A stretch of 64,000 nucleotides of DNA, from positions 49,317-113,316 of the IMG/VR virus record IMGVR_UViG_3300038968_000013; one strand, written 5' to 3'. Positions 17,480 to 59,328 of this stretch are shown in pieces. Under the pieces are notes generated by a model. It was not told the DNA's origin, searched no databases, and was given only the letters and a program-made list of their open reading frames with translations. The stretch comes from a virus. Lineage: Duplodnaviria > Heunggongvirae > Uroviricota > Caudoviricetes. Each line of letters begins with the position of its first letter. Position 1 is the stretch's first letter. Position numbers and translations under genes: made by a program.

Positions 17480-18942
17480 ATGTTGATCCGTTTCGCGTTA
17501 GAACCTGACACGTAGTCCAGGTCGATTTCATCACCAACGGCCACCTTACCCTCCGCTGCTTGGATAGTGGTCGTACACGCCCCACCTGTTGAGGTAGAGC
17601 AAGCAAGATCGCTTGTCGCAATATCGGCGGGAGAGCCGTCATCGCGTTGAATGTTGATTGTAGCTGCCGCTGAAGCCTCGCTACTAATCTCGCAACACAG
17701 CTGCGTGATTGTAATCGCACGAGCCTTATTCATCCAGATGGATGGAATATCGAGAGTGGCTGGATTAAGGGCCGAGGTTTCGTTGAAGATTGTAAAACAC
17801 GCCTGCTGCGTCTTCATGGCCACAGAGGCATAAGTGCTGTCGATGTCAACGCATGTCGGAGCTGCGTTGTCCGTAAGTGTTTGGGCAACTGTTCCAGCGC
17901 CACAGGCCCCCGCACCCGCCGCCGCTACGGATGAGGTTGCGAAGGTGGTCCCCGTCCCGCGTAAATAGCGACCGGAGGTTGCAGTGTTGTTGGCACCAGT
18001 GCCACCGTACGATTCGTCTAGTGGGGTGGAAATCTTGAGGCCCGTGAGGATACTTACCTCTTGGCCATCAAACTCAAGGTCGTTAAGCGTAGAGTCGTAT
18101 TCAATCGACATCTGTTGAGTTGTACCGAAGTACTTCTTAACGTCGTTCAGCATCCAAGTAGCGGGCATATTTCCGGTAGCAATTGGATCTGTAACCCGCA
18201 GTAGATTGGCCCCAGCGGAAACAGTCAGAACCCCTCCGGTTGCCGAACCAGAGAAATCCCCCGTGGTGAATTCGATTTTTTCTACCCGGTCGCCTGGAGA
18301 TACAACACCAATAGAGGCCCGGATGCTTGGAATTCGCCAACCGTAAGTAGAGCTTCCAAGGTACGAGCAGTAAAAGAAGCTCTGCCCATCCGTAGTAAGA
18401 TCATTGTCGATGCAGACGCGCCCAACCTCATCCGCAGCATCACAGTTGGCGGAAGAACAGGAGGTTGCATTTGGGAGTTCGACTTGCGCTGCGCCAAAGT
18501 CCTGCACCGTTGCCCCGTAGGTGTTAGCCTCATCCTCATAGCAAATCGCCGAGGGGAGCTTAGATCGTGTTGTGATGCCACTCGCATCAATGTCTGCATC
18601 CGCAACGGTCCCATTTGCAATCTCTGCGGTTCCAACAGCACCCGTTGCGATCTCTGTCGCGGTTACACCATCGGCCTTGATGCTGATAGCACCACTCGAC
18701 GCTGAGAAGTTGTTTGTGTTGAATGACGCGGCGCCCTTCTGAGAGGTCGAGGCATCGGGGATCGAGATGCTACACTGCCCTCCGCTAACACTTCCGGTCA
18801 GCGGAGGCGTGATGCTCGTTTCGAAGCAGGTATCGTACGCTCCACCGTAACTAATCGATGGAGGCGGATAACTGATCTGCGCCCACCCTGGCGTTGCGAG
18901 TAGGAGAACGAAAAGAATGACCAGGAGGTAACGCTTTACCAT
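17449..18942 (-). CDS. 497-aa secreted protein with fibre-like GTAEIANGTVADADI repeats
   Basis: Signal peptide MVKRYLLVILFVLLLATPGWA|Q. Contains the phage-fibre-like repeat IKADGVTATEIATGAVGTAEIANGTVADADI. Confidence 0.55.
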   Translation of the reverse strand: MVKRYLLVILFVLLLATPGWAQISYPPPSISYGGAYDTCFETSITPPLTGSVSGGQCSISIPDASTSQKGAASFNTNNFSASSGAISIKADGVTATEIATGAVGTAEIANGTVADADIDASGITTRSKLPSAICYEDEANTYGATVQDFGAAQVELPNATSCSSANCDAADEVGRVCIDNDLTTDGQSFFYCSYLGSSTYGWRIPSIRASIGVVSPGDRVEKIEFTTGDFSGSATGGVLTVSAGANLLRVTDPIATGNMPATWMLNDVKKYFGTTQQMSIEYDSTLNDLEFDGQEVSILTGLKISTPLDESYGGTGANNTATSGRYLRGTGTTFATSSVAAAGAGACGAGTVAQTLTDNAAPTCVDIDSTYASVAMKTQQACFTIFNETSALNPATLDIPSIWMNKARAITITQLCCEISSEASAAATINIQRDDGSPADIATSDLACSTSTGGACTTTIQAAEGKVAVGDEIDLDYVSGSNAKRINICFSYTVDAD

Positions 18943-19361: not shown

Positions 19362-20351
19362 TTACAGATCCTTAATGATATCAATGATACCTTGCGCGGA
19401 TCGTTCCCACGTAAACGCTTGAAGGTCTTGGTGAGCACGCTTTCCGACGATGAGCGAGTTGTCGTAATCGTGCATCACCGCTGCCATCTGCCTTGCGAGG
19501 CCCGGAAGATCCACGATCGCAAACTCGTACTTGCCTGTTGGGTTCGTAACTGCGGGGCCACCCATTGACGCTTCGATCCGCTCTAGCTTGTGCGGAGCAA
19601 AGAAGCAGTTACGGCGATTCGCAAACTCCAGCATCCCAGAGTACTCAGTGGTAATCGTGGGAAGCCCAGAGGACATCGCCTCGGCAACGGTCAAACCCCA
19701 GCCTTCGCCCATGGTCGGCATCACGAAACAGTGCGCCGAATGATACAGCTCGATCATTTCCTCGCGTGTAACATTTCGCCCATCCGTGATGGTGTTGCCA
19801 CGCTTGAAAACGTTCTGAAGATCTGGGTTGTGCGAGGTAGTTTTGATGTACAGTTCAACGAAGGGAATCTCTTTGAAGAAGTGATCCCAGACCACTCCTA
19901 GATTCCACCACCCCTTACGAGCATTAAAGGCGCCCACCCACAAGAAACGAAACTTCTCGTTCTGATCTTGTGAAATCGAGCGCCTTACGTAGGGGACATG
20001 ATCTGTCCCGAGAGGCACCACCTCCACGCGCTTCCCCGTCCACTTACGAAAGTATCGCTGGCAGAACTTGGAAGGCACGATGATAAGGTCGGCCTTGCGC
20101 ACCCGATCAAGCACATCTTGCGTGCAATCGGGTGTTTCGTACATCGTGATCAGAACATTAAACTTGCCTTGAAAGTGCTCAAACGCGTGCGGAGCACAGT
20201 AGGAAATATGAATGGGGCTGCGCCCGGAGATCTGAACCCCAAGCTTTTGAAACGCGGACTTCGTTCGAAAGATCGCGTTGTGATACCCGTAGTAGTTCCC
20301 GCCAGGAAGGTACTCGCCTTCCTTCGTGAACCACGAAACACTGACTGCCAC
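19362..20351 (-). CDS. glycosyltransferase, GT-B fold (GT4-like), paralog of 6048..7130
   Basis: EGWGLTVAEAMSSGLPTITT motif. Overall collinear with the 6048..7130 protein. Confidence 0.8.
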   Translation of the reverse strand: MAVSVSWFTKEGEYLPGGNYYGYHNAIFRTKSAFQKLGVQISGRSPIHISYCAPHAFEHFQGKFNVLITMYETPDCTQDVLDRVRKADLIIVPSKFCQRYFRKWTGKRVEVVPLGTDHVPYVRRSISQDQNEKFRFLWVGAFNARKGWWNLGVVWDHFFKEIPFVELYIKTTSHNPDLQNVFKRGNTITDGRNVTREEMIELYHSAHCFVMPTMGEGWGLTVAEAMSSGLPTITTEYSGMLEFANRRNCFFAPHKLERIEASMGGPAVTNPTGKYEFAIVDLPGLARQMAAVMHDYDNSLIVGKRAHQDLQAFTWERSAQGIIDIIKDL

Positions 20352-20694: not shown

Positions 20695-22020
20695 TTAGCT
20701 GTAGGTCTTAGCGACCGACCACGAACCCGTGTTAGATCCATCAGCCTGATTTACGCAGACGAAAGCGAAACGCTCCATCACACGCATCACAAGCTCGCCA
20801 GTGGTGAAACCGGCGTGAGGCGAAATGTCGATCGACATACGCTTGCGATCACCGAAGATCGCGTGCTTGAAGTCACCGTAGATCAGGAACTTCGAGCCCG
20901 AAGTGTCATCCGCAGCCTTCGGCATCACTGTCGAAGTGTAAACCGGACGACCAAGCAGACGGCGAGGCGAGGCTTCCGTTACAGAAGACACGTTGTCCGC
21001 AAGGTTGAACGGACGACCGTTGTTGTCGACCATAGCGGTCTGGATCTGGTTCCACACGTAGTTGGACATGACCCATACGCCATTCTCCTGAAGCTTCTCA
21101 TCGACCTTATTGTAGATTGCAATCAGGTCGTTCCACTTGATGTTCTTGAACGAGGTAGAACCGGAAGGAAGGGTATGGATACCCGCCGTACCAGTCTCGA
21201 CCATTACACCAGTGAACGGAGTGTGGTCGGCACGAAGCACCTGGAAGTCTTCCGCAAGGGCCACAGCCTCTGCGAATACGTCGACCAGGAAGGACATCAG
21301 ATCCGGAGTCGAATCCTCGTCCACTTCGAGCGAGATGTTGTCCAGAGCCATGAGGCGAGTTGCCACCATCTCTGGACGGGTGAACGCCTGAGTCGACTGA
21401 CCTACGCCACTCGCTTCAGTTGTCACCGCCTTGTTTGCGCCAGACGACGTGATGTTCTGGCCTACAAGAGTCGTAGGGCCATAGGTCGCGACCGGTAGAC
21501 GCATGACCTCACGGGTCATCGGCATGATGCGGCAGAGCTTGCGAGCAAGACCAAAGTTGCTCACAAGGCGGATGATTTCGTTGGCCTGCTCCGGTGGAAC
21601 AAGCACACCACCGCCCGCGTCAGGAGTACCGCCAGTGTAGACGTTACCTTCCTTCTGCGTACGTGCGTTCTTCCAGAAATCATACTTCTCATCGAGGCCG
21701 CGAGCCTTGCGAGCAAGGTCCACAACCATCATTCCTACACCCTCACGGGCGCGCGCACGGGCATCTTCCCCATTAGCAGCGGTGTAGTGCTTTTCACCGC
21801 GAGGAAGCTGCTTGTCCATCTCGTCCATGCGCTTGTTGACGTTCTCTAGAAGCCCACGGGTCTGCTCAAGGGCCGCACGAACTTCGGCGGTTTCCTTATC
21901 AATCGCAGCTCCCTTGGACTCAAACTCACGGAGGGCGGTTTCTACCTTCTCCGTCTGCTCAAGAACCGCATCCTTCAGCTTGTAAAGGGGGTTCTCGTCC
22001 TTAACATGAATGTCAGCCAT
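20695..22020 (-). CDS. major capsid protein, HK97 fold, with N-terminal coiled-coil (delta/scaffold-like) domain
   Basis: 441 aa. The N-terminal 100 aa are coiled-coil. The position after the protease and the composition are typical of HK97-family MCPs. Confidence 0.75.
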   Translation of the reverse strand: MADIHVKDENPLYKLKDAVLEQTEKVETALREFESKGAAIDKETAEVRAALEQTRGLLENVNKRMDEMDKQLPRGEKHYTAANGEDARARAREGVGMMVVDLARKARGLDEKYDFWKNARTQKEGNVYTGGTPDAGGGVLVPPEQANEIIRLVSNFGLARKLCRIMPMTREVMRLPVATYGPTTLVGQNITSSGANKAVTTEASGVGQSTQAFTRPEMVATRLMALDNISLEVDEDSTPDLMSFLVDVFAEAVALAEDFQVLRADHTPFTGVMVETGTAGIHTLPSGSTSFKNIKWNDLIAIYNKVDEKLQENGVWVMSNYVWNQIQTAMVDNNGRPFNLADNVSSVTEASPRRLLGRPVYTSTVMPKAADDTSGSKFLIYGDFKHAIFGDRKRMSIDISPHAGFTTGELVMRVMERFAFVCVNQADGSNTGSWSVAKTYS

Positions 22021-23659: not shown

Positions 23660-25957
23660 TTACTCGTCGTCATCGCCGCCCGCAGGGACGGTGGTGCAAC
23701 GACAGTTGCAAACATCAGCTGCCGACCCGAGGACATCACCTGGCCAGCGAAGCCCGTTACTGAAGGTTTCCCCAACAACGACAACCTCATAGTCGATATC
23801 GTGTCCAGCACGAACGAGGTCATCTTGACTTGAAAGCCAGCCATGGCGCTCGACACCCTGCTCTGCGTATTCAAGCGAACGCGCCTCGTTTACCGCCGAC
23901 AGCATTTCTGTCCGCGCGATGCGGTTTGCCCGCGAGGTTGTGAGGGTCATCACTTCCTTCGTGGCATCCTCCAGCGCCGCCGCTTGCTGGTTGATCGTAA
24001 GCCCTTCCATAGCGGTCTCAGCGAGCGAGGCCTGCAGCAGTTTACGTACCGTCTTTTCAATGTCCTGTGGCACCTGGCGAATCTGAATGACGCGCGTATC
24101 CAGCAGCGTCTTCATCTTGTGCGAGTCAATGGCGATGGGATCTTCGCCGAGCGTCATCGCGGCAGACTTGATACCCAGCTCAATGGCTGCCTTGTAGTGC
24201 TTACGCGAGAACTCCTCGATCTGGCTCTGCGCCTTTGGAACGTCAAACATGATGCCGTCAAGAAGATCATCAAGCACACCGCGCTTCTGCATGCGTACCG
24301 TCTTCTTGACCTTAGCGAGCATTTCCTTCCGCAGCCCGTAGAAGAAGTTATGCAGCTTGCGATAGAAGGCGTGCTCTAGCGGCACCAGCATGCGCTCAAA
24401 ATCCTCGGCCAGCTTGGCGCGGCGAGCTGAGCGAGTCTTGCCCTTGAAAGACTTCTCTCCGACCGCCTTCTCGACGGCCTTGTCCTTCTTCTTTTTCTTC
24501 TTGGCGCTCTCTACGGCGTCGTCAATTTCCTTCTGTTCCTTCTCGTCGTCATCCATCACGGCGTCATCAGTGGCGCCGTTCGACTGATCCTCAAGAAGGA
24601 GATCGTCCCCAAGCCCTGCCGGGTCACCAAGACCCATCACCATCGCCATGCTGGCTTGCTCACCAGCAAGCATACGGGCAGGAACGAGGTTGTTGGCCAC
24701 GAGCCAATCGTCACCCCATTCGACACTTTCGAAGCCAAGTGAAAGCACCCGATTGATCTGGTTGATCGGCCAGCCCATCTGGAAGAACTTCATGGCAATC
24801 TCTGCCTTCTCTCCCATGTCCTCGCGCATCGCGGGGATCTCATCGATGGCAAACCCAGCAACCTTCCCTGGTGCGTACGACTTCACCAGCGTCTTTTGCA
24901 GCACAGACGACAGACGGTTGATCTTCGGCACGATGTTGTTTTCGAACAGCATGCGCTGCGCCGACTCAACACCATCACGGCTCAGTCCTGCGCCCTGGAA
25001 GTCATTTAGTAGGGGCACAGGTACACGGAAGCAGGCAGCGATCTCCTGACGGGACCACTTACGCCCTTCCACAAAATCCATTTCTTTCTGCGAGAGACCA
25101 AGCTCTTCGAGCTGCATCCCCCCGTGAACAATGGCGACCTTGTGAATGTTGCGCGGCCCACCCCACTGGTCCTCGATACCCATACGAATCTGACGCATCT
25201 GCTCTTCCGTAAGGAAGATGTCATCCGGACGTGTCTCCGGTGGCGTGAAGGTCAGCTTCAGTGACGGGCTTGATCCGTTCAGAAAGAACTTCTCGTCGAA
25301 CACCTGGCGCGCAATGTCCGCACGAATAGACTTCATCGCGGCCTGCAGCGGCCCAATGCCCATGATCTGATTGTGTGATGCGGGGTCGGTGTACTTGAGG
25401 TGAATCAGCGAATCACCAGGGACGTTAAACGCCACCTTGCCAATCTTGACGGACCAGCTAACGAACTTCCCTGACGCATGCTCATAGTTCGGCGACACAT
25501 GCTGCACCCCGAGGGCGAGCAGTGAGCGAGGAAGTCCCCGCGAGTTGGGAAGGTCTGGCATGATCCAGGCATTCCCAGCCGCCTCTAGGTAGAGCGCAAT
25601 AGTTTCGATGAACTGACAGAAGTCGGCGTAGATGCCGGGGTAGGGGTCCGCAAGGAGGTCGAGCAGCGGGTCTTCCTTCACCGCAATCGGCAGCCCATCT
25701 TCGTCAGGCTGCTCTAGGTACATACGGTAGGGAACAGACGCCATCGCCTGCGAAATGATCGTCATACAGGCGTAGGTTGTGCTGTGATTGGAAAATGGGT
25801 CGCGGTAACCGGACTCGCCGCCGTAGGTCTGAATCTCACGACCCTCAATAAAGGCACGCTGGATTTCAGCTAGGCTCGTCGAACGCTGCTGTGGTGCAGG
25901 CGTCTTCGGTGCGAAGAACGGAAGGTTCTTTATAGTAGTTCGAAGGCGATCAAACAT
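23660..25957 (-). CDS. portal protein fused to MuF-like minor head protein domain
   Basis: 765 aa. The N-terminal ~430 aa are portal-like. A poly-Lys linker (KKKKKKDK) separates them from a C-terminal domain ending RAGHDIDYEVVVVGETFSNGLRWPGD, typical of Mu gpF / SPP1 gp7 domains. Confidence 0.75.
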   Translation of the reverse strand: MFDRLRTTIKNLPFFAPKTPAPQQRSTSLAEIQRAFIEGREIQTYGGESGYRDPFSNHSTTYACMTIISQAMASVPYRMYLEQPDEDGLPIAVKEDPLLDLLADPYPGIYADFCQFIETIALYLEAAGNAWIMPDLPNSRGLPRSLLALGVQHVSPNYEHASGKFVSWSVKIGKVAFNVPGDSLIHLKYTDPASHNQIMGIGPLQAAMKSIRADIARQVFDEKFFLNGSSPSLKLTFTPPETRPDDIFLTEEQMRQIRMGIEDQWGGPRNIHKVAIVHGGMQLEELGLSQKEMDFVEGRKWSRQEIAACFRVPVPLLNDFQGAGLSRDGVESAQRMLFENNIVPKINRLSSVLQKTLVKSYAPGKVAGFAIDEIPAMREDMGEKAEIAMKFFQMGWPINQINRVLSLGFESVEWGDDWLVANNLVPARMLAGEQASMAMVMGLGDPAGLGDDLLLEDQSNGATDDAVMDDDEKEQKEIDDAVESAKKKKKKDKAVEKAVGEKSFKGKTRSARRAKLAEDFERMLVPLEHAFYRKLHNFFYGLRKEMLAKVKKTVRMQKRGVLDDLLDGIMFDVPKAQSQIEEFSRKHYKAAIELGIKSAAMTLGEDPIAIDSHKMKTLLDTRVIQIRQVPQDIEKTVRKLLQASLAETAMEGLTINQQAAALEDATKEVMTLTTSRANRIARTEMLSAVNEARSLEYAEQGVERHGWLSSQDDLVRAGHDIDYEVVVVGETFSNGLRWPGDVLGSAADVCNCRCTTVPAGGDDDE

Positions 25958-25968
25958 CCAGGTGGTCC

Positions 25969-27441
25969 TTACATAACTCGGATTGACGCCGAGTAGTCAT
26001 ACTGTCGTTGGTTGGTGACCGTCGCAAAAGCTAGTAGTAGCGCGTCGGCACGATCGGGTGAGGGCAGTCCTCGCTTGAGAAGTTCATCCTTAGTTTCGAC
26101 ACGCCGTTGCGTTCCGTTACGTGCATAACGCACTTCCCGGTTACACAGCTGGTGCTGTAGCTCCTCGTCTCGTTGAGGGATGGAGATGCGGTCCATTGCA
26201 AGCTTACCGTCCACGAACCAAAGCTCATCTCCCCGACTGGCATAATGCTTAGGGTTCCGTGGCTTTGATCCGTTGTTAATTCCAGAGACAGTCCATCCCT
26301 GACTACGGAGAGCATCAATCACTCCTCCACCAATCCCGACTTCATCAACCACAATCAGCGTGTCATCCTGGCACTTCAGGAAGGCGTCTGGATCAAGGTC
26401 AAACTTATTCGGGTTCCCAAAGGGCTGCCGCCACCACATGGTTGCCGCCTGTACCGTCATCCCCGCAACTGACATCAGGTCGAGGCGCTTGTAGGTCTGA
26501 ATGTCCAGCACAAGGTTGCCGCGACGAACGAGGATCACGGTTTCACAGTCCCCGTACCGGGCAACGTCTACCCCAATCTGAATCGGGAGCAGCGGCATAT
26601 CCTCGCAGAAGCGGTCAAATGCCTGCTCCACCTCATCGTAACCGAAGATCGTCTTTCCCTCTGCGATCATCGGGAAGAGCCCATGGACCTTCGCCTGCAC
26701 AATCGGGGAATCTTCACCGTGTAGATCAATCAGGCGCTGGCTCGCTTCGGGGTTCACAAATGAAGACTCCCGTTGATCTACGTGCCGTGTAATCCAGTAC
26801 TTTTTGTATGACGGCTTGGTGAAGATCTCGTAGAAACGACCCGAGCGCCGTTGCGGGTTTCCAATGCAGAGACAGACGTTCCGAATGCCGCCCGTGAGAG
26901 TCGCCATCTTCGCGTCGAATTGTGCATCATCGACCCCGCTAGCCTCACTGATGACAATAAGAAGGTAGTCAGCATGGAGTCCCTGACCAGCTTCGGCATG
27001 GGCGTCCCCGGTTACCGCTGAGACACGTTTAGCCGCGATCGACTGGAAGGCCCGCCACCGCTCACCATATCCACGCACCTTTATTGTAGAGGGAGTCCAC
27101 TCCAGGAGCTGCGGTAGGTACTCAGAGTCGGAAATAACGCGTTGGATCTCCATCCAGAGCGATACTTGGATTTGCTGGGCACTCGCGGACATCGCCGCAA
27201 CCTTCGCGTACGGATGCACGAGCAGGAACCACACAATGGCCACCGACGCGAGGAAGTCTTTACCGACTCCTGTTCCCGCCGCGACCGCGACAAGATCGTT
27301 CGTGGCAAGAGACATCAGTACTTCCTCTTGCCACTTATCGAGCTTCTTTACTTGAGCAACTTCATAGGCAAACTTGACGGGATCTTTGCGGTAATCTTCC
27401 CATCGTGCCTGTAGTAGCTCTAGATCACTACTTTGACTCAC
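25969..27441 (-). CDS. terminase large subunit
   Basis: 490 aa with a P-loop-like AAGTGVGKD. The length and the position upstream of the portal fit TerL. Confidence 0.75.
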   Translation of the reverse strand: MSQSSDLELLQARWEDYRKDPVKFAYEVAQVKKLDKWQEEVLMSLATNDLVAVAAGTGVGKDFLASVAIVWFLLVHPYAKVAAMSASAQQIQVSLWMEIQRVISDSEYLPQLLEWTPSTIKVRGYGERWRAFQSIAAKRVSAVTGDAHAEAGQGLHADYLLIVISEASGVDDAQFDAKMATLTGGIRNVCLCIGNPQRRSGRFYEIFTKPSYKKYWITRHVDQRESSFVNPEASQRLIDLHGEDSPIVQAKVHGLFPMIAEGKTIFGYDEVEQAFDRFCEDMPLLPIQIGVDVARYGDCETVILVRRGNLVLDIQTYKRLDLMSVAGMTVQAATMWWRQPFGNPNKFDLDPDAFLKCQDDTLIVVDEVGIGGGVIDALRSQGWTVSGINNGSKPRNPKHYASRGDELWFVDGKLAMDRISIPQRDEELQHQLCNREVRYARNGTQRRVETKDELLKRGLPSPDRADALLLAFATVTNQRQYDYSASIRVM

Positions 27442-28112: not shown

Positions 28113-28742
28113 TTATCTTTCGATGTCGTACTGCCGGTTCACAGCAGTCATGACAATTTCGGTGATGTCGACTTGTCCGTACGCATCACCGAGTGCGCGA
28201 ATCTTCGCTTGGAAGTCCGCGTGTTGGTCACTAGGTACCCACAGGATCACACGCTCAATGGGTGTTTCCTGCGGCTTGTTCTTTTCCGATTCGGGCGAGA
28301 TCGGGTCGTTCGGATCAAGCTGCTCCTTCTCTAGGAGATAGGTCAGCTCATCTTCGCCCCAGAGCCCCTTGAGGGAATTCTCATCCTCGTGGAGTAGGTC
28401 TTTCAGCACGTCGGTATTCCATCCGCCGCCTACTTCCTGGGAGCGATTGTCGAGCAGCGCCATGCGGACCTTCTTCTTGCCCTTGAGATCCTTGCGCCGC
28501 ACCGCGATGATTTCTGATCCGTCCGTGTCGACAACACGAACCTTGGTGATCCCTGCAGCCGTAGCCGCTTCGACCACACCGTTGCCAGCGATCAGTTCAC
28601 CGTCTTCGTCGATCAGAACTGACCGACCCATGCCCACTTCATGCACGCCGTCAATCAGCATGCTGATATTCTTCTCGGTATGAATCCGAGCATTCTTCGG
28701 ATCGTACTTCAGATCCTTAACTGACTTAATGTCCTTTGCCAC
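28113..28742 (-). CDS. ParB-like nuclease domain protein
   Basis: N-terminal KYDPKNARIHTEKNISMLIDGVHEVGMGRSVLIDEDGELIAGNGVVEAA resembles the ParB/Srx fold. Such proteins often sit near phage terminases. Confidence 0.55.
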   Translation of the reverse strand: MAKDIKSVKDLKYDPKNARIHTEKNISMLIDGVHEVGMGRSVLIDEDGELIAGNGVVEAATAAGITKVRVVDTDGSEIIAVRRKDLKGKKKVRMALLDNRSQEVGGGWNTDVLKDLLHEDENSLKGLWGEDELTYLLEKEQLDPNDPISPESEKNKPQETPIERVILWVPSDQHADFQAKIRALGDAYGQVDITEIVMTAVNRQYDIER

Positions 28743-28995
28743 GCTTTACCTCTCCACACGTTGGGAAGGGAACTTCCCCACGATCCATCCGGGCCAATCC
28801 GGAAAGATCCATGACCTCCACCGGCACTCCGTAGTTGTGGTACTTCCGATACGACAGTCGATACTCGATCATGAACGCCGGTTCGTGCCCGCGTTCGTGA
28901 CAGTAGTGACACATCCCAATCGTCATCGGGCCCAACCGCGACGCATACGTATTCACTGCGCCGTTCGGTGCTCCACAGCAGTCGCATTTACCCAA
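28726..28995 (-). CDS. hypothetical Cys/His-rich small protein
   Basis: 89 aa with a CDCC..CHYCHERGH pattern. Confidence 0.3.
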   Translation of the reverse strand: MGKCDCCGAPNGAVNTYASRLGPMTIGMCHYCHERGHEPAFMIEYRLSYRKYHNYGVPVEVMDLSGLARMDRGEVPFPTCGEVKRGKGH

Positions 28996-29848
28996 GGAGC
29001 TTCACCACTTCCTGGACAACTTCCTCCACGGACACATAGGTCGGACATGGATTGCGAAAGCCGTTACAGACTTCCTCGCAGTTACACCCGGTTCCCGGAT
29101 TCACGGGGTAGGTATTGCTGTAGGCGCGAAGATTTGAATCCTTCGGGCCAAAGACAATCACCTGAGGGGTACCCATGGCGGCTGCAACATGCATCAGTCC
29201 CGAATCTTGTCCGAGGTACAGGGAGCACCAGTTGAGTAGTCCCGCTGTCTCGCGCACCGAGAACGTGTCGATGTAACACGCGTCGGTGTCTTGTAGGATC
29301 TCGGTGCGACGTTGCCCAAAGCAATCGGGCGTTGAAGCACCAATCTCAATGATTGGATACGACTCACGCAGCTCCGACACGACCGCCTGCCACATGTCGA
29401 AGGGCCAACGACGCGACGGCCATCCTGCCCACGTATCGATGGCGATGGTGCCAGGGGAGATGTCACGACCGACTTCGAGTTCCTTATCGGTCAGAAACAG
29501 CTCAGGCATGCGGTACTCGTCGCGTGGGGTGAGCCCACACGCGGCAACGTACGCATCCACCATGTGCTGGTGACTATTGCCACCTAGCGGTAGCTCCACC
29601 TTTCGGGGAAGCTGCAGCATTTCGTGCGTCCCGTTGAATCGAGGGCTATGACTGAAGATCCAAGGACGACGAACGTTGACCTCGATCTTGAGGTCAGGGT
29701 ACGTGTGTCGTAGCGCACGTACAGCGCCGGTTACTGCTATCTCGTCACCGAGAGAGCCAAACAGTTCTAGAAGCATCGCTCCAGCCAATCGCTCATCACG
29801 ACTACAGCGTTGGCATAGGAATACGGTGATCCGTACTGCTTGTCCCAA
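28988..29848 (-). CDS. glycosyltransferase family 9 (heptosyltransferase-like)
   Basis: GQDSGLMHVAAAMGTPQVIVFGP matches the GT9 signature region. LLELFGSLGDEIAVTGAVRALRHTYPDLKIE matches the GT9 N-terminus. Confidence 0.7.
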   Translation of the reverse strand: MGQAVRITVFLCQRCSRDERLAGAMLLELFGSLGDEIAVTGAVRALRHTYPDLKIEVNVRRPWIFSHSPRFNGTHEMLQLPRKVELPLGGNSHQHMVDAYVAACGLTPRDEYRMPELFLTDKELEVGRDISPGTIAIDTWAGWPSRRWPFDMWQAVVSELRESYPIIEIGASTPDCFGQRRTEILQDTDACYIDTFSVRETAGLLNWCSLYLGQDSGLMHVAAAMGTPQVIVFGPKDSNLRAYSNTYPVNPGTGCNCEEVCNGFRNPCPTYVSVEEVVQEVVKLLG

Positions 29849-30393
29849 TTCTCCTTGCCCACCTCGTATACCTTGGGAGCAAGTTGATGCAGCATGATGC
29901 GCGGCGCGTTAGATTTTTGTGCCGCTTTGTCTAGCTCTCGATTGAAGCCCACTGGCCAAGTGAGACAGTAGTGAGAGCTGTTTACAATAATAGAGTGAAG
30001 TGTTTCAGCCGCTTCTTCGGGTCGATGTTTCTGGGCACCCGATCCGCCATAGTGGCTCTCGTCAACCCCGATGTGCTCTAGCGTTGAAATCGAGAGGACC
30101 GTGAGCCCCGTAAAATCGAAGCCTACCGCGTCAACCCGTTCGGCCTTGATGTACGGGTCATACGGGTCGAGCACCCGGTGCGGCACAATCGCGGCATCCG
30201 CGTTCGGCAGCACCTTCAGCGCGCGGCGATAGGGCACGTTAGGATCGTACCAGTACGGGGTCACAGCCCCGACTTCCACGATGTCCCACGGCTCTTTCAG
30301 GTCGCCGTACCACTCGGCCACGATGGGGATCTCAACCGCTCGCTCCCCTTCATTTACCGCGTAGCTTAATTCTTTGCCACGGAACAAAAACAC
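29767..30393 (-). CDS. putative SAM-dependent methyltransferase
   Basis: Weak motif I (DIVEVGAV) and motif LTVLSISTLEHIGVD of the class I MTase type. Confidence 0.3.
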   Translation of the reverse strand: MFLFRGKELSYAVNEGERAVEIPIVAEWYGDLKEPWDIVEVGAVTPYWYDPNVPYRRALKVLPNADAAIVPHRVLDPYDPYIKAERVDAVGFDFTGLTVLSISTLEHIGVDESHYGGSGAQKHRPEEAAETLHSIIVNSSHYCLTWPVGFNRELDKAAQKSNAPRIMLHQLAPKVYEVGKENWDKQYGSPYSYANAVVVMSDWLERCF

Positions 30394-31004
30394 TACAGCT
30401 TCTCAAATACCGCGATACCGCCCCAATTCAGGGACTCGTCGATCGCCATCTTCACGAGGCGCCAGTCGCTGCGGAGTTCCGGGAAGAGCCCGAGCTTGCG
30501 CAGAGCTTCCCGCGTCGCGGTGCCAAAGTCGACGTGATCCTTCGGACCACTACCTTGCCAGTCCATCTTGTTCTGGGCTGCAGGGGAGACGTCATGGAAC
30601 AGCATGAGCCCGCCCTTTTCTACCTTGTCGCCGTAGTGAAGCGCGTCGAGCATCACATGCGTGATGTCGTGCCCGCCATCCACGAACAGGAACTGCAGCG
30701 GAGCTGGGACGTGCATGTACACGTACTCTGACTCACCCTGCACAACGTTCGCGCCAGGGAACGGAGGTTGCTTCGCGCAGATAGCGCCAGCAGCGCCGTC
30801 GCGGTCATTGTCCACACCCCAATACTCAAACTCACGCCCGAGATCCTGGAGGTGCTGGGCGATACCACGAGAGGTGTCGCCGTGACAGATTCCAATCTCA
30901 CACACGCGCAGCTTCTGATCAGGAAAGCGACGCGCCACTTCTTCCAACGCCTCGGCTACTGCCGCCGCGTCGGTTGCACTAATGATTCCGTATGACTTGA
31001 GCAA
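30393..31004 (-). CDS. class I SAM-dependent methyltransferase (Methyltransf_24 / TylF-like)
   Basis: VCEIGICHGDTS ... LFVDGGHD motifs. Confidence 0.55.
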   Translation of the reverse strand: MLKSYGIISATDAAAVAEALEEVARRFPDQKLRVCEIGICHGDTSRGIAQHLQDLGREFEYWGVDNDRDGAAGAICAKQPPFPGANVVQGESEYVYMHVPAPLQFLFVDGGHDITHVMLDALHYGDKVEKGGLMLFHDVSPAAQNKMDWQGSGPKDHVDFGTATREALRKLGLFPELRSDWRLVKMAIDESLNWGGIAVFEKL

Positions 31005-31773
31005 CTTTTTCCACCACTTCTTCTACCGAGATTTCTTCGAGGCACGGGGCAATCCCGTGTACCGCCACATCACAATCCAACTTCCAGCACGGTGAGCAAA
31101 CAATCTGCGACTCGCACCACACGTCGTCAGGGTACCCCACGACGCTGCGCTGCTCCCGTCCACCAGCGATCACGACTGACCGAGTGCCAACGGCGTTCGC
31201 GAGATGCATTGGGCCACTGATAGGGCCAACGTGGCACAATGCATCTGCAAGCATAACGAGTGTTTCGGGTAGCGGCTTCCCCATACAGAGCGAGAGGCAC
31301 CCGATATCTGGGTCCGTGAGTCCACCAATCTGAACTACGTAGACGCCTAGGTCACGTACGTCACTAACAAGCTTCCGCCACTTCTCTAGCGGCCATCGCT
31401 TGGTATTCCCTGCCCATGCCCCTGCGGTGCTCTGCACGGTCACGTAGCGGAATTCCGAGAAGGCGTGGTTGCCTTCTACGCGCGCGAACAGCTGCACGCG
31501 CCCTGGAGGTTCAAGCCCCAGCTTGCGACACATGAACACAACCATGTGCTCATCGCCGCAGACCCGCATATCATCCAACTCCGGGAAACTTCTGGCGCCA
31601 TCCCATGGCACCGCTTCTCCGATGTAGGGGTTCCCGGCAAACAGTTCCGGGTATGCGGATGAAACTACCGGTCGAACACCACGCTGCTGATAAATCTCTC
31701 GCGCCACTGCCGAGAGAAGTATTGCATCGCCGATACCGGGACCGCCCGCGCTAATCCTCTCATACGAGAGCAT
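30979..31773 (-). CDS. glycosyltransferase family 9 (heptosyltransferase-like), second copy
   Basis: GIGDAILLSAVAREI N-terminus and GPISGPMHLANAVGTRSVVIAGG signature. Confidence 0.65.
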   Translation of the reverse strand: MLSYERISAGGPGIGDAILLSAVAREIYQQRGVRPVVSSAYPELFAGNPYIGEAVPWDGARSFPELDDMRVCGDEHMVVFMCRKLGLEPPGRVQLFARVEGNHAFSEFRYVTVQSTAGAWAGNTKRWPLEKWRKLVSDVRDLGVYVVQIGGLTDPDIGCLSLCMGKPLPETLVMLADALCHVGPISGPMHLANAVGTRSVVIAGGREQRSVVGYPDDVWCESQIVCSPCWKLDCDVAVHGIAPCLEEISVEEVVEKVAQVIRNH

Positions 31774-32383
31774 TGTAGGCGCAGAGAGGTCGATTCACGA
31801 ACAGAAACTCAAGGGGCTTCTTGTTGTAGATCGCCTGGTAGAACTCGCCGTCGTTCACGGACGAATTCACATTCCAGCGTTCGTCGCCCACTAGCTCGAT
31901 CGGGATGCAGCCTTGTGCCGTATCGATCCCGCATGGACGCACATTCTGTGGAGCCGCGATGCAGCGATACGAACCATCGAGGTTCACCTGATCGTAGAAG
32001 AAGCCCTTGCTAGGAAACTCCTTCATCAGGAACTGAATCGTCTCAAGATAGCTCGTGAGCATCAGGTTGTCGTCATCAAGGAAGCAGATGCGACACTTTC
32101 CACGCTCCGTGAGGTAGTCGAGGACTTCGTTACGCTCCGCTGTCCCGCCGATACCGGGAGACTCGCAGCGCGTCTTCACGACGTATATACCGTCTTCCCA
32201 TCCCTGCTTCTCTTGCAGGGGGATAAAGTGCGCATGCGACTGCCACCAGACAATCGGCAGCGTGCTCTTCTCCATCGACATGCGAATCGACTTCTCTACG
32301 AACGGCAGGTTGTCGAGGCGTGTTACCGGCGTGATGATGACGAACGGGTATTCAAACTCGTGTAGATTTACATCTAGCTTCAT
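31760..32383 (-). CDS. glycosyltransferase, GT-A fold
   Basis: Likely start MKLDVN. FVIITPVTR is a GT2-type N-terminus. CFLDDDN provides a DxD motif. Confidence 0.5.
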   Translation of the reverse strand: MKLDVNLHEFEYPFVIITPVTRLDNLPFVEKSIRMSMEKSTLPIVWWQSHAHFIPLQEKQGWEDGIYVVKTRCESPGIGGTAERNEVLDYLTERGKCRICFLDDDNLMLTSYLETIQFLMKEFPSKGFFYDQVNLDGSYRCIAAPQNVRPCGIDTAQGCIPIELVGDERWNVNSSVNDGEFYQAIYNKKPLEFLFVNRPLCAYNALV

Positions 32384-32880
32384 GGTTGCTTCTGCCCCTC
32401 GATCTTGCAGTGCCCCTCGATCCACCCTGAGGCAACCTCGCGCGTCTCCGGTGAGAGAGATTGGACTAGAGAGAACGGCGCAAACTCAGCGAGGATGATC
32501 ACCATGGCTGTAATTGCCGCTGCCTTATCTAGCGAGGCGTCTTCCGTTAGGATCTCAGCATGGGCCGCGAGCTTAAACATGTACCGCTCTGACAGCACAC
32601 AGCTTGGCGTGATGAATGCCGAGACACGCGCGACCGCAGGGTTGTTGAAGAATGTTGTGGACTCTTCGCCCCCAAGGTTGTTGCGCGCCGCTTCTTTCAC
32701 CATCCAGCGTTGGAAGAAATCCGAAGCGAGATACTTGACGTTCTCGTAAAAAACAGAGTCGAGATACTGACCTAGGTGGTCTTCCCCGGTGCCAGATCCT
32801 TGCGCAGATGGAAGCCATCCAACACTTGGCTCCATGCACCGACTCGCCGATTCGCTGAGACCACTGCCGCTAATCCACAT
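32380..32880 (-). CDS. hypothetical protein
   Basis: 166-aa ORF within the glycan island. No motif recognised. Confidence 0.3.
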   Translation of the reverse strand: MWISGSGLSESASRCMEPSVGWLPSAQGSGTGEDHLGQYLDSVFYENVKYLASDFFQRWMVKEAARNNLGGEESTTFFNNPAVARVSAFITPSCVLSERYMFKLAAHAEILTEDASLDKAAAITAMVIILAEFAPFSLVQSLSPETREVASGWIEGHCKIEGQKQP

Positions 32881-33386
32881 AGACCACCCTTACCCACGTA
32901 CGCTTTCGCGCCGAGCACCACTCCAGCTTGTAGAGTCGCAAAGTCACATACGCGTGCTTCCGCTCCTACAATGACACCTGACCCGATCATCACATGGCTG
33001 CCGAGTTCGGCACCGTCCATGATCAGGGCTCCAGGCATGACAATACTACCGACCCCGATCTTTGCTGAAGAGGCGATGACAGCCGTTGGCGCCTTCACGC
33101 TCCTGATCGGCCAAACCCGCTTCTCCTGACGGGCACTCAGCACAGGCGTAAGAGCCGCCGCGCGTTGCACCGGATCAGGATTCGTAAAGACCAGTTGCCC
33201 GGTGACGGGCATTTCCGCTAGCGCCTCGGTGAACCCGATGATGCGCAGCCCGTGAAACGTTGTCCCGATTTCGCCGTACCCGCGATCCGCGAGTACTTCA
33301 ATGTCCACCAACGGATTCGCATCCATCAGCAGATTTGCAACTGTGCGTGCTTCTTGGCTCGCTCCTACAAGAAAAACCTTCGACAA
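32772..33386 (-). CDS. sugar acetyltransferase, NeuD/PglD-like (left-handed beta-helix)
   Basis: N-terminal Rossmann-like MSKVFLVGAS... followed by hexapeptide-repeat stretches (IGVGSIVMPGALIMDGAELGSHVMIGSGVIVGAEARV). Confidence 0.6.
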   Translation of the reverse strand: MSKVFLVGASQEARTVANLLMDANPLVDIEVLADRGYGEIGTTFHGLRIIGFTEALAEMPVTGQLVFTNPDPVQRAAALTPVLSARQEKRVWPIRSVKAPTAVIASSAKIGVGSIVMPGALIMDGAELGSHVMIGSGVIVGAEARVCDFATLQAGVVLGAKAYVGKGGLCGLAAVVSANRRVGAWSQVLDGFHLRKDLAPGKTT

Positions 33387-33391: not shown

Positions 33392-33775
33392 CTACCTCAG
33401 ACCCGCAAGAAGGTAGCTAACTGCGCTAGCTAGAACCTCAGGCTTGTCATGGAAAAACGCGATGCCCGTATTACACTTACGACACAGGAGACCACGCACT
33501 CGACCAGTAGCATGACAGTGGTCCACCGCAAGACGACCATTCTTAGCGCGCTCAGGGGACTTACAGATCGCACAAACGTGCCCCTGTAGCTTTAGGAGCG
33601 TTTCGTACTCAGCAAAAGATATCCCGTATCGCTTAACCTCAACCGCAATACGACACTGACCGCACTTGACGTGATTAGGGTTTTCCCTGCTGATGTATTT
33701 ATACTTTGCGTCGTGACCCTTCGCGCATGGTGTCTTCAGCTTACGAAGGATGCGACCCCGAACCGGTGCATCCAT
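33392..33775 (-). CDS. recombination endonuclease VII (Holliday junction resolvase)
   Basis: CAIC...LAVDHCHATGRVRGLLCRKCN matches the Endo VII zinc/HNH-like core. Confidence 0.65.
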   Translation of the reverse strand: MDAPVRGRILRKLKTPCAKGHDAKYKYISRENPNHVKCGQCRIAVEVKRYGISFAEYETLLKLQGHVCAICKSPERAKNGRLAVDHCHATGRVRGLLCRKCNTGIAFFHDKPEVLASAVSYLLAGLR

Positions 33776-35242: not shown

Positions 35243-35653
35243 TTAACGTCTTCGGCCTTTAGTAGCGTCTTCGCCCGGTGGATCATACTCGACTACGAAT
35301 TCCTCCGTGGGCTTGCCGAGTTCTGCTGCGCGGTCGCGGGTCCAACCGCTTCCGTAAGATTTGGATCGGGACCAGGCGATACGAACCAGCCGCTCACATC
35401 GTTCCGCGATTTCTCGATTTCGAGACATATATCCGCGAAGTTTGCCTCGATTACCCCACTGCGCGACTTCGGGTAGAAAGATACATGTAGGGATTCCGCG
35501 TCGCGTGGCGGCTTCAGCTGCCAACGTGTCAACGCCCAGAGCCCCGCCAGATACCACCTCAGAAGGCTGATATTTGTCCAGAACCTCTTCCACAATCCGT
35601 TTCGCTTCTTCACTCTCACCTAACGCCACCGATCCTACGATTGCTAGTCGCAC
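35243..35653 (-). CDS. SLOG / DUF2493-like Rossmann protein (DprA-LOG superfamily)
   Basis: MRLAIVGSVALG...VVSGGALGVDTLAAEAA matches the pattern. Confidence 0.45.
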   Translation of the reverse strand: MRLAIVGSVALGESEEAKRIVEEVLDKYQPSEVVSGGALGVDTLAAEAATRRGIPTCIFLPEVAQWGNRGKLRGYMSRNREIAERCERLVRIAWSRSKSYGSGWTRDRAAELGKPTEEFVVEYDPPGEDATKGRRR

Positions 35654-36303: not shown

Positions 36304-36660
36304 CTAGGCGTGGGCATAGATGGTTTCTTTCCAGGCGAAAGGTAGGTCGTAGACGAAGTGGTAACGTTGCTTCAGGATCTCGACCATGCGCTTCCTGCCA
36401 TCCTCGTTGATCGAGTGGCAGATCACCGACACGCCGAACTTTGCGACGTCAGGGTTCCCGATCATCCACTGCGCGAGACCGGTGCCGTCCATTTCCGTGC
36501 CGAGGTCGTGATCGAGCATGATCACGTCGTACGGAAACGACATCAGCAGCCGTTGCGCGTGGTAGGGATTCTTCGCGTAGTCCGTCTCGTGGTGTGGATT
36601 ATTCCACGAGTACTCTTTGAACCGCTCGACCTCATCGTCCACAAACAACACCCGCATCAC
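36304..36660 (-). CDS. orphan response-regulator receiver (REC/CheY-like) domain protein
   Basis: MMRVLFVDDE...YDVIMLDHDLG shows the acidic pocket and phospho-acceptor Asp context of REC domains. No output domain is present. Confidence 0.5.
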   Translation of the reverse strand: MMRVLFVDDEVERFKEYSWNNPHHETDYAKNPYHAQRLLMSFPYDVIMLDHDLGTEMDGTGLAQWMIGNPDVAKFGVSVICHSINEDGRKRMVEILKQRYHFVYDLPFAWKETIYAHA

Positions 36661-42867: not shown

Positions 42868-43223
42868 ACCAACACCCACGCCAGGAAGAAGTAGGTCAGC
42901 GCATGAAGGTACTGATCGAACCCCAGCAAGATCCAGAACCACTCGCTATTGTTCGGCAGTAAGCCGTAATGCGCACCAACGTTCATCTTGGCCCAATCGA
43001 TGTGGTAGTGAGCTACCCCGTCGACCACCATCGACAACATAGCGAGCGTCACGCTATCGCAGCACGAGAGCACAACCCAGAACGTTGCCAGCGCATGCAG
43101 CCCCGCGTGGAGAATTCCGCCAGGGTGACCGTACGTACCCTTATTGGTGTACATGTACGGATGCGCCTGCATCGGAAAGTCCACGATGAAATGCTTCGTG
43201 AATAGCCAGAAGAGTAGCGTCAT
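42864..43223 (-). CDS. polytopic membrane protein, His-rich
   Basis: 119 aa with 3-4 hydrophobic helices. Confidence 0.4.
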   Translation of the reverse strand: MTLLFWLFTKHFIVDFPMQAHPYMYTNKGTYGHPGGILHAGLHALATFWVVLSCCDSVTLAMLSMVVDGVAHYHIDWAKMNVGAHYGLLPNNSEWFWILLGFDQYLHALTYFFLAWVLV

Positions 43224-43954
43224 TAGCCCTCCATCCCCATGTCATACCCCGGATGATCCGGAATCAGGCTACCGAGATATGCTCGGTCCTGCGTGAAAAC
43301 CGGAGGACACCCATTTGTTCCCCAACCATGCGACAGGCACTCGCGCCAATACTGCTGCACACGACCGCGACGAAAGCCTTCCGGATGATTGTTCCAGTTG
43401 TCACCCTTCGCGTGAATCATGTCGTGTAGGTCGGGCGACTTCTTCCCGTGCAGTTCCTTGTGCGAGTAGTAGTGCTGCGCCAGCATCTGCAGGGAATTGC
43501 GTTCCGCATCCTGCTGCCGCCAGATGAAGTAGTTCATGACCTCGGTGCGATCTGGGATCACGAACACGCGCGCATCGAAGACAGCCGCCATGTCGACGCC
43601 CCAGCACCGGTTGAACGCGACCGATGCCGTTGCCGCCGCGATCGAGCACATTTTCTGCAGGTTGCCGTCGAACCACGCGTCGGTCTGAATCGAGTCGAAG
43701 TCCGTCAGGAGTAGCGAGATTTCGTCCGACTGCGTGAAGGCGAATTGGGTACCCTGAATGCTTTTGCAGAGCGCCAACGCGGTGACGTCCATCGCGTTCA
43801 TGAAGCCCTTATCGTATGGCTTCTCCATGTGACGAGTCAGCGTGTGAAACGCTTTCCCGTCGACACGGATGACGGTGTAGGTGCGCCGAGGAAGGGAAAT
43901 GCGGTACCGATCTTCGTACTGCTCCTTCATGCGATCACCTAGCGAGTCAGGCAT
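43223..43954 (-). CDS. tRNA-His guanylyltransferase (Thg1-like protein)
   Basis: YEDRYRISLPRRTYTVIRVDGKAFH, EKPYDKGFMNAMDVTALAL and AFTQSDEISLLL align with the Thg1 family blocks (..VVRLDGRGFH.., ..KPNDERALNLMN.., ..YGYSDEYSFVF). Confidence 0.65.
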   Translation of the reverse strand: MPDSLGDRMKEQYEDRYRISLPRRTYTVIRVDGKAFHTLTRHMEKPYDKGFMNAMDVTALALCKSIQGTQFAFTQSDEISLLLTDFDSIQTDAWFDGNLQKMCSIAAATASVAFNRCWGVDMAAVFDARVFVIPDRTEVMNYFIWRQQDAERNSLQMLAQHYYSHKELHGKKSPDLHDMIHAKGDNWNNHPEGFRRGRVQQYWRECLSHGWGTNGCPPVFTQDRAYLGSLIPDHPGYDMGMEG

Positions 43955-53453: not shown

Positions 53454-53969
53454 TTAGTTGCTGGGCTCGACGCCATGGAGGATCGGCGGGGCGAGACGCG
53501 TTGGCGTCGGCGTCGGCGTAGCACTCCGAGTAGGCGTTGTTGTTGCCACGGGCGTTACCGTCCGCGTGCTTGTTGGCGTTGCGGTGGCTGTTGCGGTTGG
53601 CGTTGGTAGCGTCGCGAATCGGTCTGGCGTATCACACGGATCGACGCCACCACACCCGGTACACGATTCACCCGCTGTGTTTGATTGGCACAGGCGGAAA
53701 CGAATAGTGTCACCCGGTGAAGCAAGCGTAGAGAAATCTGCGCAAAGCACGCCCGGTTGTGGTGAAGGGCAAGGTGCTTGAACCGCCAGAACGTTCGTAA
53801 TGACGGTCTGTTGCGTTGGCGTGAGGCGCAGTAGTCGCGCCCCCGTTGCCGAGGAATCGAACGGAGCAAACCTCGCACGAAAGTTTTGATTGGTTTGCGC
53901 GTTAGCAAACTGCGCGAGGTATAGAATGAAAACGATGATCGCAGCTAGTGCGAAAAACAGCTTACGCAT
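53454..53969 (-). CDS. secreted protein with Thr/Pro-rich linker
   Basis: Likely start MRKLFFALAAIIVFILYLAQFANA|Q. The C-terminal stretch is TPTATATATPTSTRTVTPVATTTPTRSATPTPTPT. Confidence 0.4.
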   Translation of the reverse strand: MRKLFFALAAIIVFILYLAQFANAQTNQNFRARFAPFDSSATGARLLRLTPTQQTVITNVLAVQAPCPSPQPGVLCADFSTLASPGDTIRFRLCQSNTAGESCTGCGGVDPCDTPDRFATLPTPTATATATPTSTRTVTPVATTTPTRSATPTPTPTRLAPPILHGVEPSN

Positions 53970-54444: not shown

Positions 54445-54582
54445 TACCAAAGCTTGTTCCAGATCTTGCGGTACCGAGCTGCGAGAGTATCGTTGGTGCG
54501 ACCGTCGAACGTTTCGAGCGACCACACGACGATGACGGCGAGGTTCGCCACCACGAATGCTGCACCGATGAATCCCACCATG

Positions 54583-54711
54583 TTACTGTCCTCCCATCCC
54601 TACGATGATGTACTTGAAGTAAGCCGCGCCCGAGATAAACCCGAGCGCGACTCCCACACCCACCGCCACCCCAAACACCACCGACCGAAAAAACGTCTTT
54701 ACGTTGTCCAT
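54583..54711 (-). CDS. small membrane peptide
   Basis: MDNVKTFFRSVVFGVAVGVGVALGFISGAAYFKYIIVGMGG. The start overlaps the SPFH gene stop codon. Confidence 0.3.
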   Translation of the reverse strand: MDNVKTFFRSVVFGVAVGVGVALGFISGAAYFKYIIVGMGGQ

Positions 54712-55796: not shown

Positions 55797-55822
55797 ACCA
55801 TCCTCCCCTTATTGTACTCGGT

Positions 55823-59246: not shown

Positions 59247-59328
59247 GAAAAATGACCCCGAAGTCATGCTAATTATGCATGAATACTCAGCCTCGATGAG
59301 CATCGGGGAGAGAAGCTGTTTCAAAAAG

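Follow-up and report, generated by a model that had tools for sequence, protein, structure and literature searches.

What might a tailed phage decorate with a set of sugar-transferring and sugar-modifying enzymes whose genes merge into its terminase, portal and capsid genes? The question is raised by a stretch of 64,000 nucleotides (hereafter the window) from an uncultured tailed phage, positions 49,317 to 113,316 of the IMG/VR record IMGVR_UViG_3300038968_000013, with a GC content of approximately 0.55. On its minus strand, positions 28988 to 33386 form a gap-free, co-directional run of seven genes that constitutes a carbohydrate-enzyme cassette. The island is an instance of phage-encoded glycan decoration, which is of a known kind; it is set apart by a phage-specific clade of minimal GT9 glycosyltransferases (GTs). 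On our best reading, the source is a lytic-looking phage whose cassette works together with GT4 and GT2 genes adjacent to the capsid and tail-tube genes. As for what is decorated, we tentatively favour the phage's own virion proteins, on which a late-expressed, soluble set of enzymes would build a short O-methylated oligosaccharide.

The cassette extends from the start of an acetyltransferase gene at 33386 to the stop of a GT9 gene (GT9a) at 28988, the exact limits proposed in a sequence-only reading of the window. Listed from its upstream end, with its flanks, it comprises the following features (lengths in amino acids, aa).

33392-33775, minus strand: Endo VII gene, upstream flank
32772-33386, minus strand: NeuD/PglB/VioB-like sugar N-acetyltransferase, 204 aa (Hexapep, TIGR03570)
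32380-32703/32835, minus strand: small conserved open reading frame (ORF), 107 aa or 151 aa (homologue in locus L004)
31760-32383, minus strand: GT-A fold, GT2-like glycosyltransferase, 207 aa (AlphaFold 2 model, Foldseek, DDD motif)
30979-31773, minus strand: GT9b, heptosyltransferase-like, 264 aa (PF01075)
30393-31004, minus strand: Methyltransf_24 (TylF/CmcI-type) probable sugar O-methyltransferase, 203 aa (PF13578)
29767-30393, minus strand: putative divergent class I S-adenosylmethionine-dependent methyltransferase, 208 aa (fold only)
28988-29776, minus strand: GT9a, 262 aa (from Met25 of a 286-aa ORF), with a Cys-rich C-terminus (PF01075)
28726-28995, minus strand: Cys-rich CxxC ORF, 76-89 aa (MGKCDCCG...CHYCHERGH), between GT9a and the ParB-like gene
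28113-28742, minus strand: ParB-like gene (phrog_620), downstream flank

The sequence-only reading described a contiguous operon of six enzymes between ParB-like and Endo VII genes. Its contiguity and both flanks were confirmed; the count was not, as the run holds seven genes including the small ORF, which had been missed. The Cys-rich ORF had likewise gone unmentioned; it is called on sister contigs and gives weak matches to PHROG families of unknown function. Throughout the cassette, gene ends overlap or abut, and the run continues straight into the ParB-like gene and the genes for the large terminase subunit (TerL), portal, protease and capsid, the cassette lying 1.5 kb upstream of TerL. 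A promoter and terminator scan of the island returned matches at chance frequency and no signal of its own.

The enzymes of the cassette

The sequence-only reading had staked its proposal on the GT9 and GT-A assignments, and both held. GT9a matches PF01075 with 49.4 bits (4.8e-13) and GT9b with 31.7 bits (1.3e-7), the gathering score being 22. Both also match models for heptosyltransferases I, II and III and for TibC/Aah, far under the equivalog level: GT9a matches TIGR02195 and TIGR02193, GT9b matches TIGR02195 (1.6e-6), and all equivalog scores lie far below their cut-offs (for TIGR02195, for example, 39.5 against 134.6). An alignment of 25 GT9a-family members revealed the motifs G-D (near-invariant, N-terminal; G11 and D12), WAGWPSRRWP and DSGLxHxAAA, with D192, S193, G194 and H197 conserved among the members. 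These align with VGD (residues 11-13) and NDSGLMHVAAA of WaaF (1psw). GT9b carries the motifs GIGDA and ISGPMHLA. When searched against the Protein Data Bank (PDB), a GT9a profile retrieved WaaF (1psw, 1.3e-15), a Veillonella GT9 (3tov, 3.3e-15) and TibC (5.5e-8), followed by WaaC.

The cassette GT9s share with WaaC/WaaF and TibC/Aah the PF01075 domain, the N-terminal G-D, the C-terminal DSGxxHxAAA and a basic WP motif that coincides with the donor-binding lysine position. They differ in being phage-borne, in their Cys-rich C-terminal tail and in their size, approximately 262 aa as opposed to 319 (WaaC), 348 (WaaF) and 406 aa (TibC). Positions 63-119 of the GT9a profile correspond to WaaF residues 67-193; thus, approximately 70 residues of the N-terminal acceptor domain appear to be missing, and the full-length two-domain GT-B architecture (some 320-350 aa, acceptor domain complete) was not seen in the GT9a family. 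Unlike the setting of lipopolysaccharide (LPS) heptosyltransferases, no ADP-heptose pathway genes lie nearby.

GT9a, called as 262 aa on sister contigs, has approximately 27 close relatives of 254-281 aa each, every one of them metagenomic. A single-protein scan of IMG/VR with GT9a gave no match, and a profile scan recovered 16 loci, 3 of which hold close family members; a metagenome scan yielded mostly canonical GT9s together with at least two new members of the family. For GT9b, orthologues in other phage loci are 55% (L001/L012), 41% (L003) and 34% (L004) identical. Among 185,579 species genomes, no cellular relative of GT9a exceeds 28% identity over its full length, and so the GT9 genes do not represent a recently captured host LPS cluster. 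Judged by sequence, both GT9s belong to a rare, phage-specific short clade of approximately 262 aa, in which the acceptor domain is shortened and the catalytic motifs are kept. The earlier statement that GT9 enzymes usually act on the LPS inner core is sound for the family at large; the proteins of the cassette, however, make up a separate short clade without a close cellular relative. On whichever acceptor it works, this clade offers a compact and tractable target for enzymology.

Among cultured phages, a GT9a homologue was found solely in the phiCbK-like giant phages of Caulobacter (15 of 50,697 records), at 26-29% identity over partial length. In one of these, CcrColossus, the cluster gp126-gp131 combines a 276-aa GT9 with a GT-A-type gene and a sialyltransferase-like gene directly after the tail protein gp125. 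It lacks a Methyltransf_24 gene, a second GT9 and an acetyltransferase in the order of the cassette. Both CcrColossus and the window carry a TROVE/Ro60 gene, which in CcrColossus is close to the GT9 cluster.

The GT-A protein has no Pfam match at E<=0.1 and does not reach the gathering threshold of PF00535; its orthologues score 19.6-20.2 bits against that family, below the threshold of 23.3. Its AlphaFold 2 model has a predicted local distance difference test score (pLDDT) of 91.9, and a Foldseek search of this model against the PDB produced 126 matches at E<=1e-3, the best 50 of which are all GT-A enzymes (for example WrtF, GlcAT, SpsA, RmlT and TarS/TarP; top match E 1.8e-8, template modelling score 0.65). 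Invariant columns of the family read TR...DDD and FLDDDN. A full HMMER search identified 1628 representative relatives. Orthologues are present in L001, L003 and L004. Twenty-four relatives are fused, multi-domain proteins, and among these PF00535 is matched by 14 (E<=0.001, best 9.6e-18), Methyltransf_24 by 9, RMNT_CmcI (rhamnosyl O-methyltransferase) by 7 and TAGT by none. The fusions to Methyltransf_24 and RMNT_CmcI tie two of the cassette genes to glycan chemistry.

Two methyltransferases had been proposed. The first is well supported, matching Methyltransf_24 with 60.4 bits (3.5e-16, cut-off 26.3) and having orthologues with 63% (L001), 48% (L003) and 43% (L004) identity. Its GT9-adjacent homologues in L006 and in the P0025 locus also match TylF; because of these co-matches and of the GT-A fusions, which support a sugar substrate, we read it as a probable sugar O-methyltransferase partnering the GT-A enzyme. 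For the second (29767-30393), PDB sequence searches gave no match, and it is taken as a putative divergent class I methyltransferase from its fold alone.

The acetyltransferase appears to have an N-terminal Rossmann-like part, with a weak CoA_binding match at residues 2-77, followed by a left-handed beta-helix (Hexapep, 5.4e-9). It aligns with positions 1-183 of the 202 in TIGR03570 (E 1.2e-26), the score of 93.5 bits lying below the cut-off of 160.8. LpxD, LpxA, WlbB and QdtC were returned from the PDB by sequence, and the L004 orthologue is 33% identical. The small ORF encodes 107 aa from a start at 32703, as called on sister contigs, or 151 aa from 32835; its stop codon and the GT-A start codon overlap as ATGA. 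A homologue in L004 shows 32% identity over 113 aa, conservation extending upstream of the ATG at 32703; no Pfam or PHROG family was matched. A transmembrane helix was considered for this ORF (Kyte-Doolittle peak 2.07) and rejected, because the corresponding part of the L004 orthologue lacks hydrophobic character.

From these assignments a pathway can be proposed. The NeuD/PglD-type enzyme would N-acetylate a nucleotide-linked amino sugar of host origin. The GT2-like GT-A enzyme and the two minimal GT9s would then add one sugar each, the GT9 donor being, by family precedent, ADP-heptose or a similar sugar. Finally, the TylF/CmcI-type enzyme and the second methyltransferase would O-methylate the product, probably as a cap. 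We infer the sugar donors, the order of the steps and, above all, the acceptor.

Structural-module glycosyltransferases and the cassette in other phages

Several metagenome contigs, 23 to 113 kb long, carry the same phage. The parent contig measures 113 kb, and our scans covered approximately 74 kb of it, namely the 64-kb window and the 10 kb past its end (L110:1-10000). No nucleotide similarity to cultured phages was detected among 50,697 records, and the TerL is at most 33% identical to those of cultured phages. The late gene array and the GT genes embedded within it are as follows.

25969-27441, minus strand: TerL
23660-25957, minus strand: portal
20695-22020, minus strand: major capsid protein, HK97-fold (Phage_capsid 4e-41)
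19362-20351, minus strand: GT4, one small gene downstream of the capsid gene (Glyco_trans_1_4 1.3e-13)
7079-7813, minus strand: GT2, upstream of the tube-position gene (Pfam and PHROG glycosyltransferase matches)
6048-7130, minus strand: GT4, upstream of the tube-position gene (Pfam and PHROG glycosyltransferase matches)
5009-6034, minus strand: gene in the tail-tube position, 341 aa (by gene order)

A protease/scaffold-like gene, head-tail genes and tail genes also lie on the minus strand, and an open frame of tape-measure size, exceeding 1349 codons, leaves the window at its start. The gene at 5009-6034 was placed as tail tube because the 341-aa frame is followed in order by chaperone-size ORFs and the frame of more than 1349 aa.

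A profile search of IMG/VR with the structural-module GT4s confirmed 192 viral relatives. A capsid homologue was present within 6 kb of the GT4 in 54 of the 80 loci fetched, and within two genes in 30 of the 71 loci used for that count; most often the genes run portal, protease, capsid, GT4. From the window it would seem that uncultured phages retain a GT4 beside the capsid gene far more widely; some of these phages add a portable four-gene core (the GT2-like enzyme, two minimal GT9s and an O-methyltransferase) with which the glycan could be elaborated. As most GT4-bearing phages have no GT9 cassette, the cassette looks like an optional elaboration. The gene context of the cultured relatives of this GT4, found in Streptomyces BE-cluster phages, was uninformative.

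Three phage types combine the cassette with capsid- or tube-adjacent GTs, namely that of the window, L004 and L012/L139. The loci L012 and L139 share a 56-kb contig, on which L139 shows the order GT2-GT4-88aa-tube as in the window. In L195, furthermore, a GT4 of the capsid-adjacent family adjoins GT9a-family genes. The capsid-adjacent GT4 probably belongs to the same glycosylation system as the cassette. The sequence-only reading had suggested that the island might supply sugars for the structural-module GTs. The link between the two is borne out by their co-occurrence; supply is the wrong word, because, the N-acetyltransferase apart, nucleotide-sugar synthesis genes are absent from the island, which holds transferases and tailoring enzymes. 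Co-occurrence supports viewing the two gene sets as co-workers on one glycan.

Other genes recur in these surroundings. Across loci L115-L194, the neighbours of the GT4 include radical SAM/SPASM proteins of 267-272 aa (for example L130:5968-6783, L123:7793-8611, L137:6995-7798 and L148:4358-5176), class I methyltransferases and GT2s, and capsid-adjacent modules for post-translational modification may be common and largely undescribed. In the window, two proteins that are rich in Ser/Thr (22%) and measure 497 and 440 aa (17449-18942 and 16157-17479, both minus strand) lie between the capsid-adjacent GT4 and a 1145-aa protein and have no Pfam or PHROG match. Their N-termini are signal-peptide-like or lipobox-like (MVKRYLLVILFVLLLATPGWAQ; ...VLTLCGNVQAG), which is odd for virion proteins; they are candidate glycan acceptors.

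The core of GT-A, GT9b, Methyltransf_24 and GT9a genes was found in four phage backgrounds, each time upstream of TerL (homologue within approximately 1-7 kb).

Window phage: Endo VII upstream; ParB-like gene and TerL downstream
L004, syntenic with the window: also carries the acetyltransferase, small ORF, second methyltransferase, ParB-like gene and a GT4 after the capsid gene
L001/L002/L012: cassette adjoins DnaB, DNA methylases and a type ISP enzyme
L003-type: cassette immediately follows a C5-methylase and a TAGT DNA glycosyltransferase (order: C5-methylase, 283 aa, TAGT (PF20691), 91 aa, cassette); a GT2 and a sulfatase-superfamily gene come after it

Cassette proteins of the window are 43-63% identical to those of L001 and 31-43% identical to those of the syntenic L004. 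As identity with L001 exceeds that with L004, the core has passed as a unit from one backbone to another. In L006 and the P0025 locus, more distant GT9a members stand at the end of the tail-fibre genes alongside a TylF-type methyltransferase; in L007 the setting is a group of BNR/SPRY fibre-like genes with a GT4. Members near integrases occur in L005, L006, the P0025 locus and L013/L014, L005 also giving a weak pyruvyl-transferase match. The L003 parent contig (ERZ1305449) is 65 kb long, and the gene downstream of its cassette encodes a sulfatase/phosphotransferase-superfamily protein.

The acceptor of the glycan

Four considerations lead us to favour virion proteins, albeit tentatively: the position of the cassette in the late array, its co-occurrence with morphogenesis-linked GTs, the distant members at the end of tail-fibre genes, and the precedent of mycobacteriophages. 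To our knowledge, virion glycosylation has been demonstrated experimentally in only a few actinobacteriophages. Glycosylation of actinobacteriophage virions weakens the neutralising-antibody response. The window shows the same association of GT and O-methyltransferase genes with the structural genes of one phage as do mycobacteriophage loci. In cluster O (Corndog-like) and cluster F (Che8-like) mycobacteriophages, capsid and tail-tube subunits are the demonstrated glycan acceptors (Freeman et al. 2023, as described in PMC11600133 and PMC12619734). These loci resemble the cassette in combining an O-methyltransferase with approximately three GTs and in tying GT genes to the structural module. 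The cassette differs in that its enzymes are GT9, GT2-like and GT4 rather than members of the actinophage GT families, in its additional N-acetyltransferase and second methyltransferase, and in the placement of its main part upstream of the terminase, apart from the capsid- and tube-adjacent GTs; moreover, virion glycans have been demonstrated in the mycobacteriophages, whereas the cassette is known from its genes. Were virion proteins indeed the acceptor, phage glycobiology would extend beyond actinophages and GT9 would gain a new class of acceptor, these being the first virus-encoded GT9 enzymes to glycosylate virion proteins.

Several points weigh against this assignment. The capsid and tube proteins display no evident glycosylation-site motif and no obvious Ser/Thr-rich C-terminal tail, and no acceptor was identified. 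The characterised acceptors of GT9 enzymes known to us are the LPS core and autotransporters, never virion proteins. The L003-type cassette directly follows genes of a DNA-glycosylating kind, and within 10 kb the flanks in L001/L002 are DnaB, DNA methylases and a type ISP enzyme and not structural genes. Approximately 39 kb of the parent contig lies outside the scans. Furthermore, position alone cannot separate modification of virion proteins from modification of DNA before packaging. Net charge and isoelectric point (pI) were considered as a discriminator between acceptors and rejected: the island GTs are acidic (pI approximately 5), but controls (T4 alpha-GT 6.1, WaaF 7.2, GT9a family 5.0-9.8) showed this to be uninformative.

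An unlikely alternative is that the GT9 pair and its partners remodel the host envelope by modifying the LPS core or another surface glycan; such remodelling may block superinfection, keep progeny from sticking to debris or, in temperate relatives, bring about lysogenic conversion. The sequence-only reading had proposed receptor masking or lysogenic conversion, for which we obtained little support. The best PDB relatives of the GT9s, WaaF and WaaC, do agree with an envelope target, as do the integrase-proximal positions of distant GT9a members (typical of morons), the sulfatase/phosphotransferase-superfamily gene of L003, the pyruvyl-transferase match of L005 and the occurrence of the closest cellular GT9s in metagenome-assembled genomes of Planctomycetota. 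However, no integrase was found among the ORFs of the approximately 74 kb scanned, and the island merges into the late gene array and shows no promoter or terminator signal above chance; in both respects it departs from Gtr/Oac-type lysogenic conversion. Nor was there a flippase, a Gtr-like component or an acyltransferase_3 component, or any hydrophobic segment conserved between orthologues. The part of the acceptor domain that is curtailed in GT9a belongs to the domain that binds lipid A-Kdo in WaaC/WaaF, and the low identity of cellular homologues argues against recent capture of host LPS genes. The host itself is poorly indicated: the species-genome search recovered distant cellular GT9s only, the window's other phage genes being found in none of those genomes. 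Planctomycetota is a weak hint, and on present evidence the host is not an actinobacterium.

We regard sugar hypermodification of the phage DNA as a rather improbable explanation, in which a methylated, possibly heptose-containing glycan would be placed on a hydroxylated base before packaging and protect against restriction. We know of no report of a GT9 enzyme acting on DNA. Precedent for such sugars exists, as phage GT-A and GT-B enzymes add mono-, di- and trisaccharides including heptose and Kdo to 5-hydroxymethylcytosine, and DNA-glycosylation clusters occur near ParB-like, terminase and methyltransferase genes (bioRxiv 10.1101/2023.12.21.572611). DNA-hypermodification clusters (C5-methyltransferase/5mYOX or ThyS with TAGT or GT-B; Burke 2021, Pyle 2023) likewise employ several sequential GTs, lie near ParB-like, methylase and terminase genes and draw sugars from host LPS-type pools including heptose. 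The setting of the island between Endo VII/HNH and ParB-like/terminase genes fits this pattern, N6/N4 DNA methylases are found near several cassettes, and the TAGT-adjacent copy in L003 appears to be the strongest hint of a DNA-linked role. A deoxypyrimidine nucleotidase of the NT5C type (7e-6) is encoded at 53962-54525, in a minus-strand group (53962-57544) with an SPFH/Band 7 protein and a 573-aa AAA ATPase; it could be relevant if the phage alters its pyrimidine pool.

Base-hydroxylating enzymes, however, were not found in the approximately 74 kb scanned. Neither a TET/JBP enzyme nor a thymidylate-synthase-like hydroxymethylase nor a C5-methylase was found among window ORFs of at least 100 aa or in the 10 kb beyond, and precomputed Pfam matches up to 10 kb from the L001/L002 and L004 cassettes included no such gene; a search seeded with T4 gp42 revealed no ThyA-like protein in any cassette locus. 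Intact hypermodification pathways are usually clustered (Pyle et al., bioRxiv 10.1101/2023.12.21.572611). In the same study, methylation of DNA-linked glycans was not looked for and an acetyltransferase goes unmentioned (bioRxiv 10.1101/2023.12.21.572611). The GT-A gene, additionally, groups with GT2 enzymes and O-methyltransferase fusions and not with TAGT. A DNA-directed cassette would require the hydroxylating enzyme to be encoded elsewhere in the genome, a supposition of low probability for which the TAGT-adjacent copy is the hint. Repurposing of minimal GT9s onto a polymer unrecorded for their family would have as its boldest form a heptose-containing, O-methylated oligosaccharide on phage DNA, which we hold to be a long shot; if it were so, a new enzyme family would join DNA hypermodification.

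Least probable is another acceptor altogether (a small molecule, a protein of the host or a phage protein that is not part of the virion) or a selfish accessory module without a role: movement between backbones as a unit would suit a self-contained module whose acceptor is not lineage-specific, and TibC-type GT9 enzymes do act on proteins, but there is no candidate acceptor and no phage precedent, and both the conservation of catalytic motifs and the closely packed operon speak for a function that is being maintained.

Other genes of the window

A Ro60/TROVE protein with a vWA domain is encoded at 61161-62771, minus strand (TROVE 2e-42, vWA_Ro60 8.5e-49), and a tRNA-Leu gene lies at 59328-59411. 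An Rfam search detected no Y RNA or other family at threshold besides three tRNAs. The early region encodes a Thg1-like tRNA-His guanylyltransferase (43223-43954, minus strand, 3.5e-28), a cyclic-phosphate-processing receiver domain protein (cREC_REC; 36304-36660, minus strand) and a SLOG/YAcAr-DprA-like protein (35243-35653, minus strand). Together with Ro60, these genes suggest a theme of RNA repair or RNA quality control in this phage.

Past the window end, L110:1-10000 holds an N6/N4 DNA methylase, a second metallophosphoesterase and an HTH_36-DnaB replication module; the same HTH_36-DnaB pair precedes the cassette in L001/L002. Finally, a 468-aa protein is encoded at 11314-12720, minus strand. 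No tandem repeat is present there at the DNA level. The protein itself displays a degenerate 14-residue periodicity, the spacings of the motif [YF]E[ADNT][ILV] being mostly multiples of 14, and is probably a fibrous structural protein.

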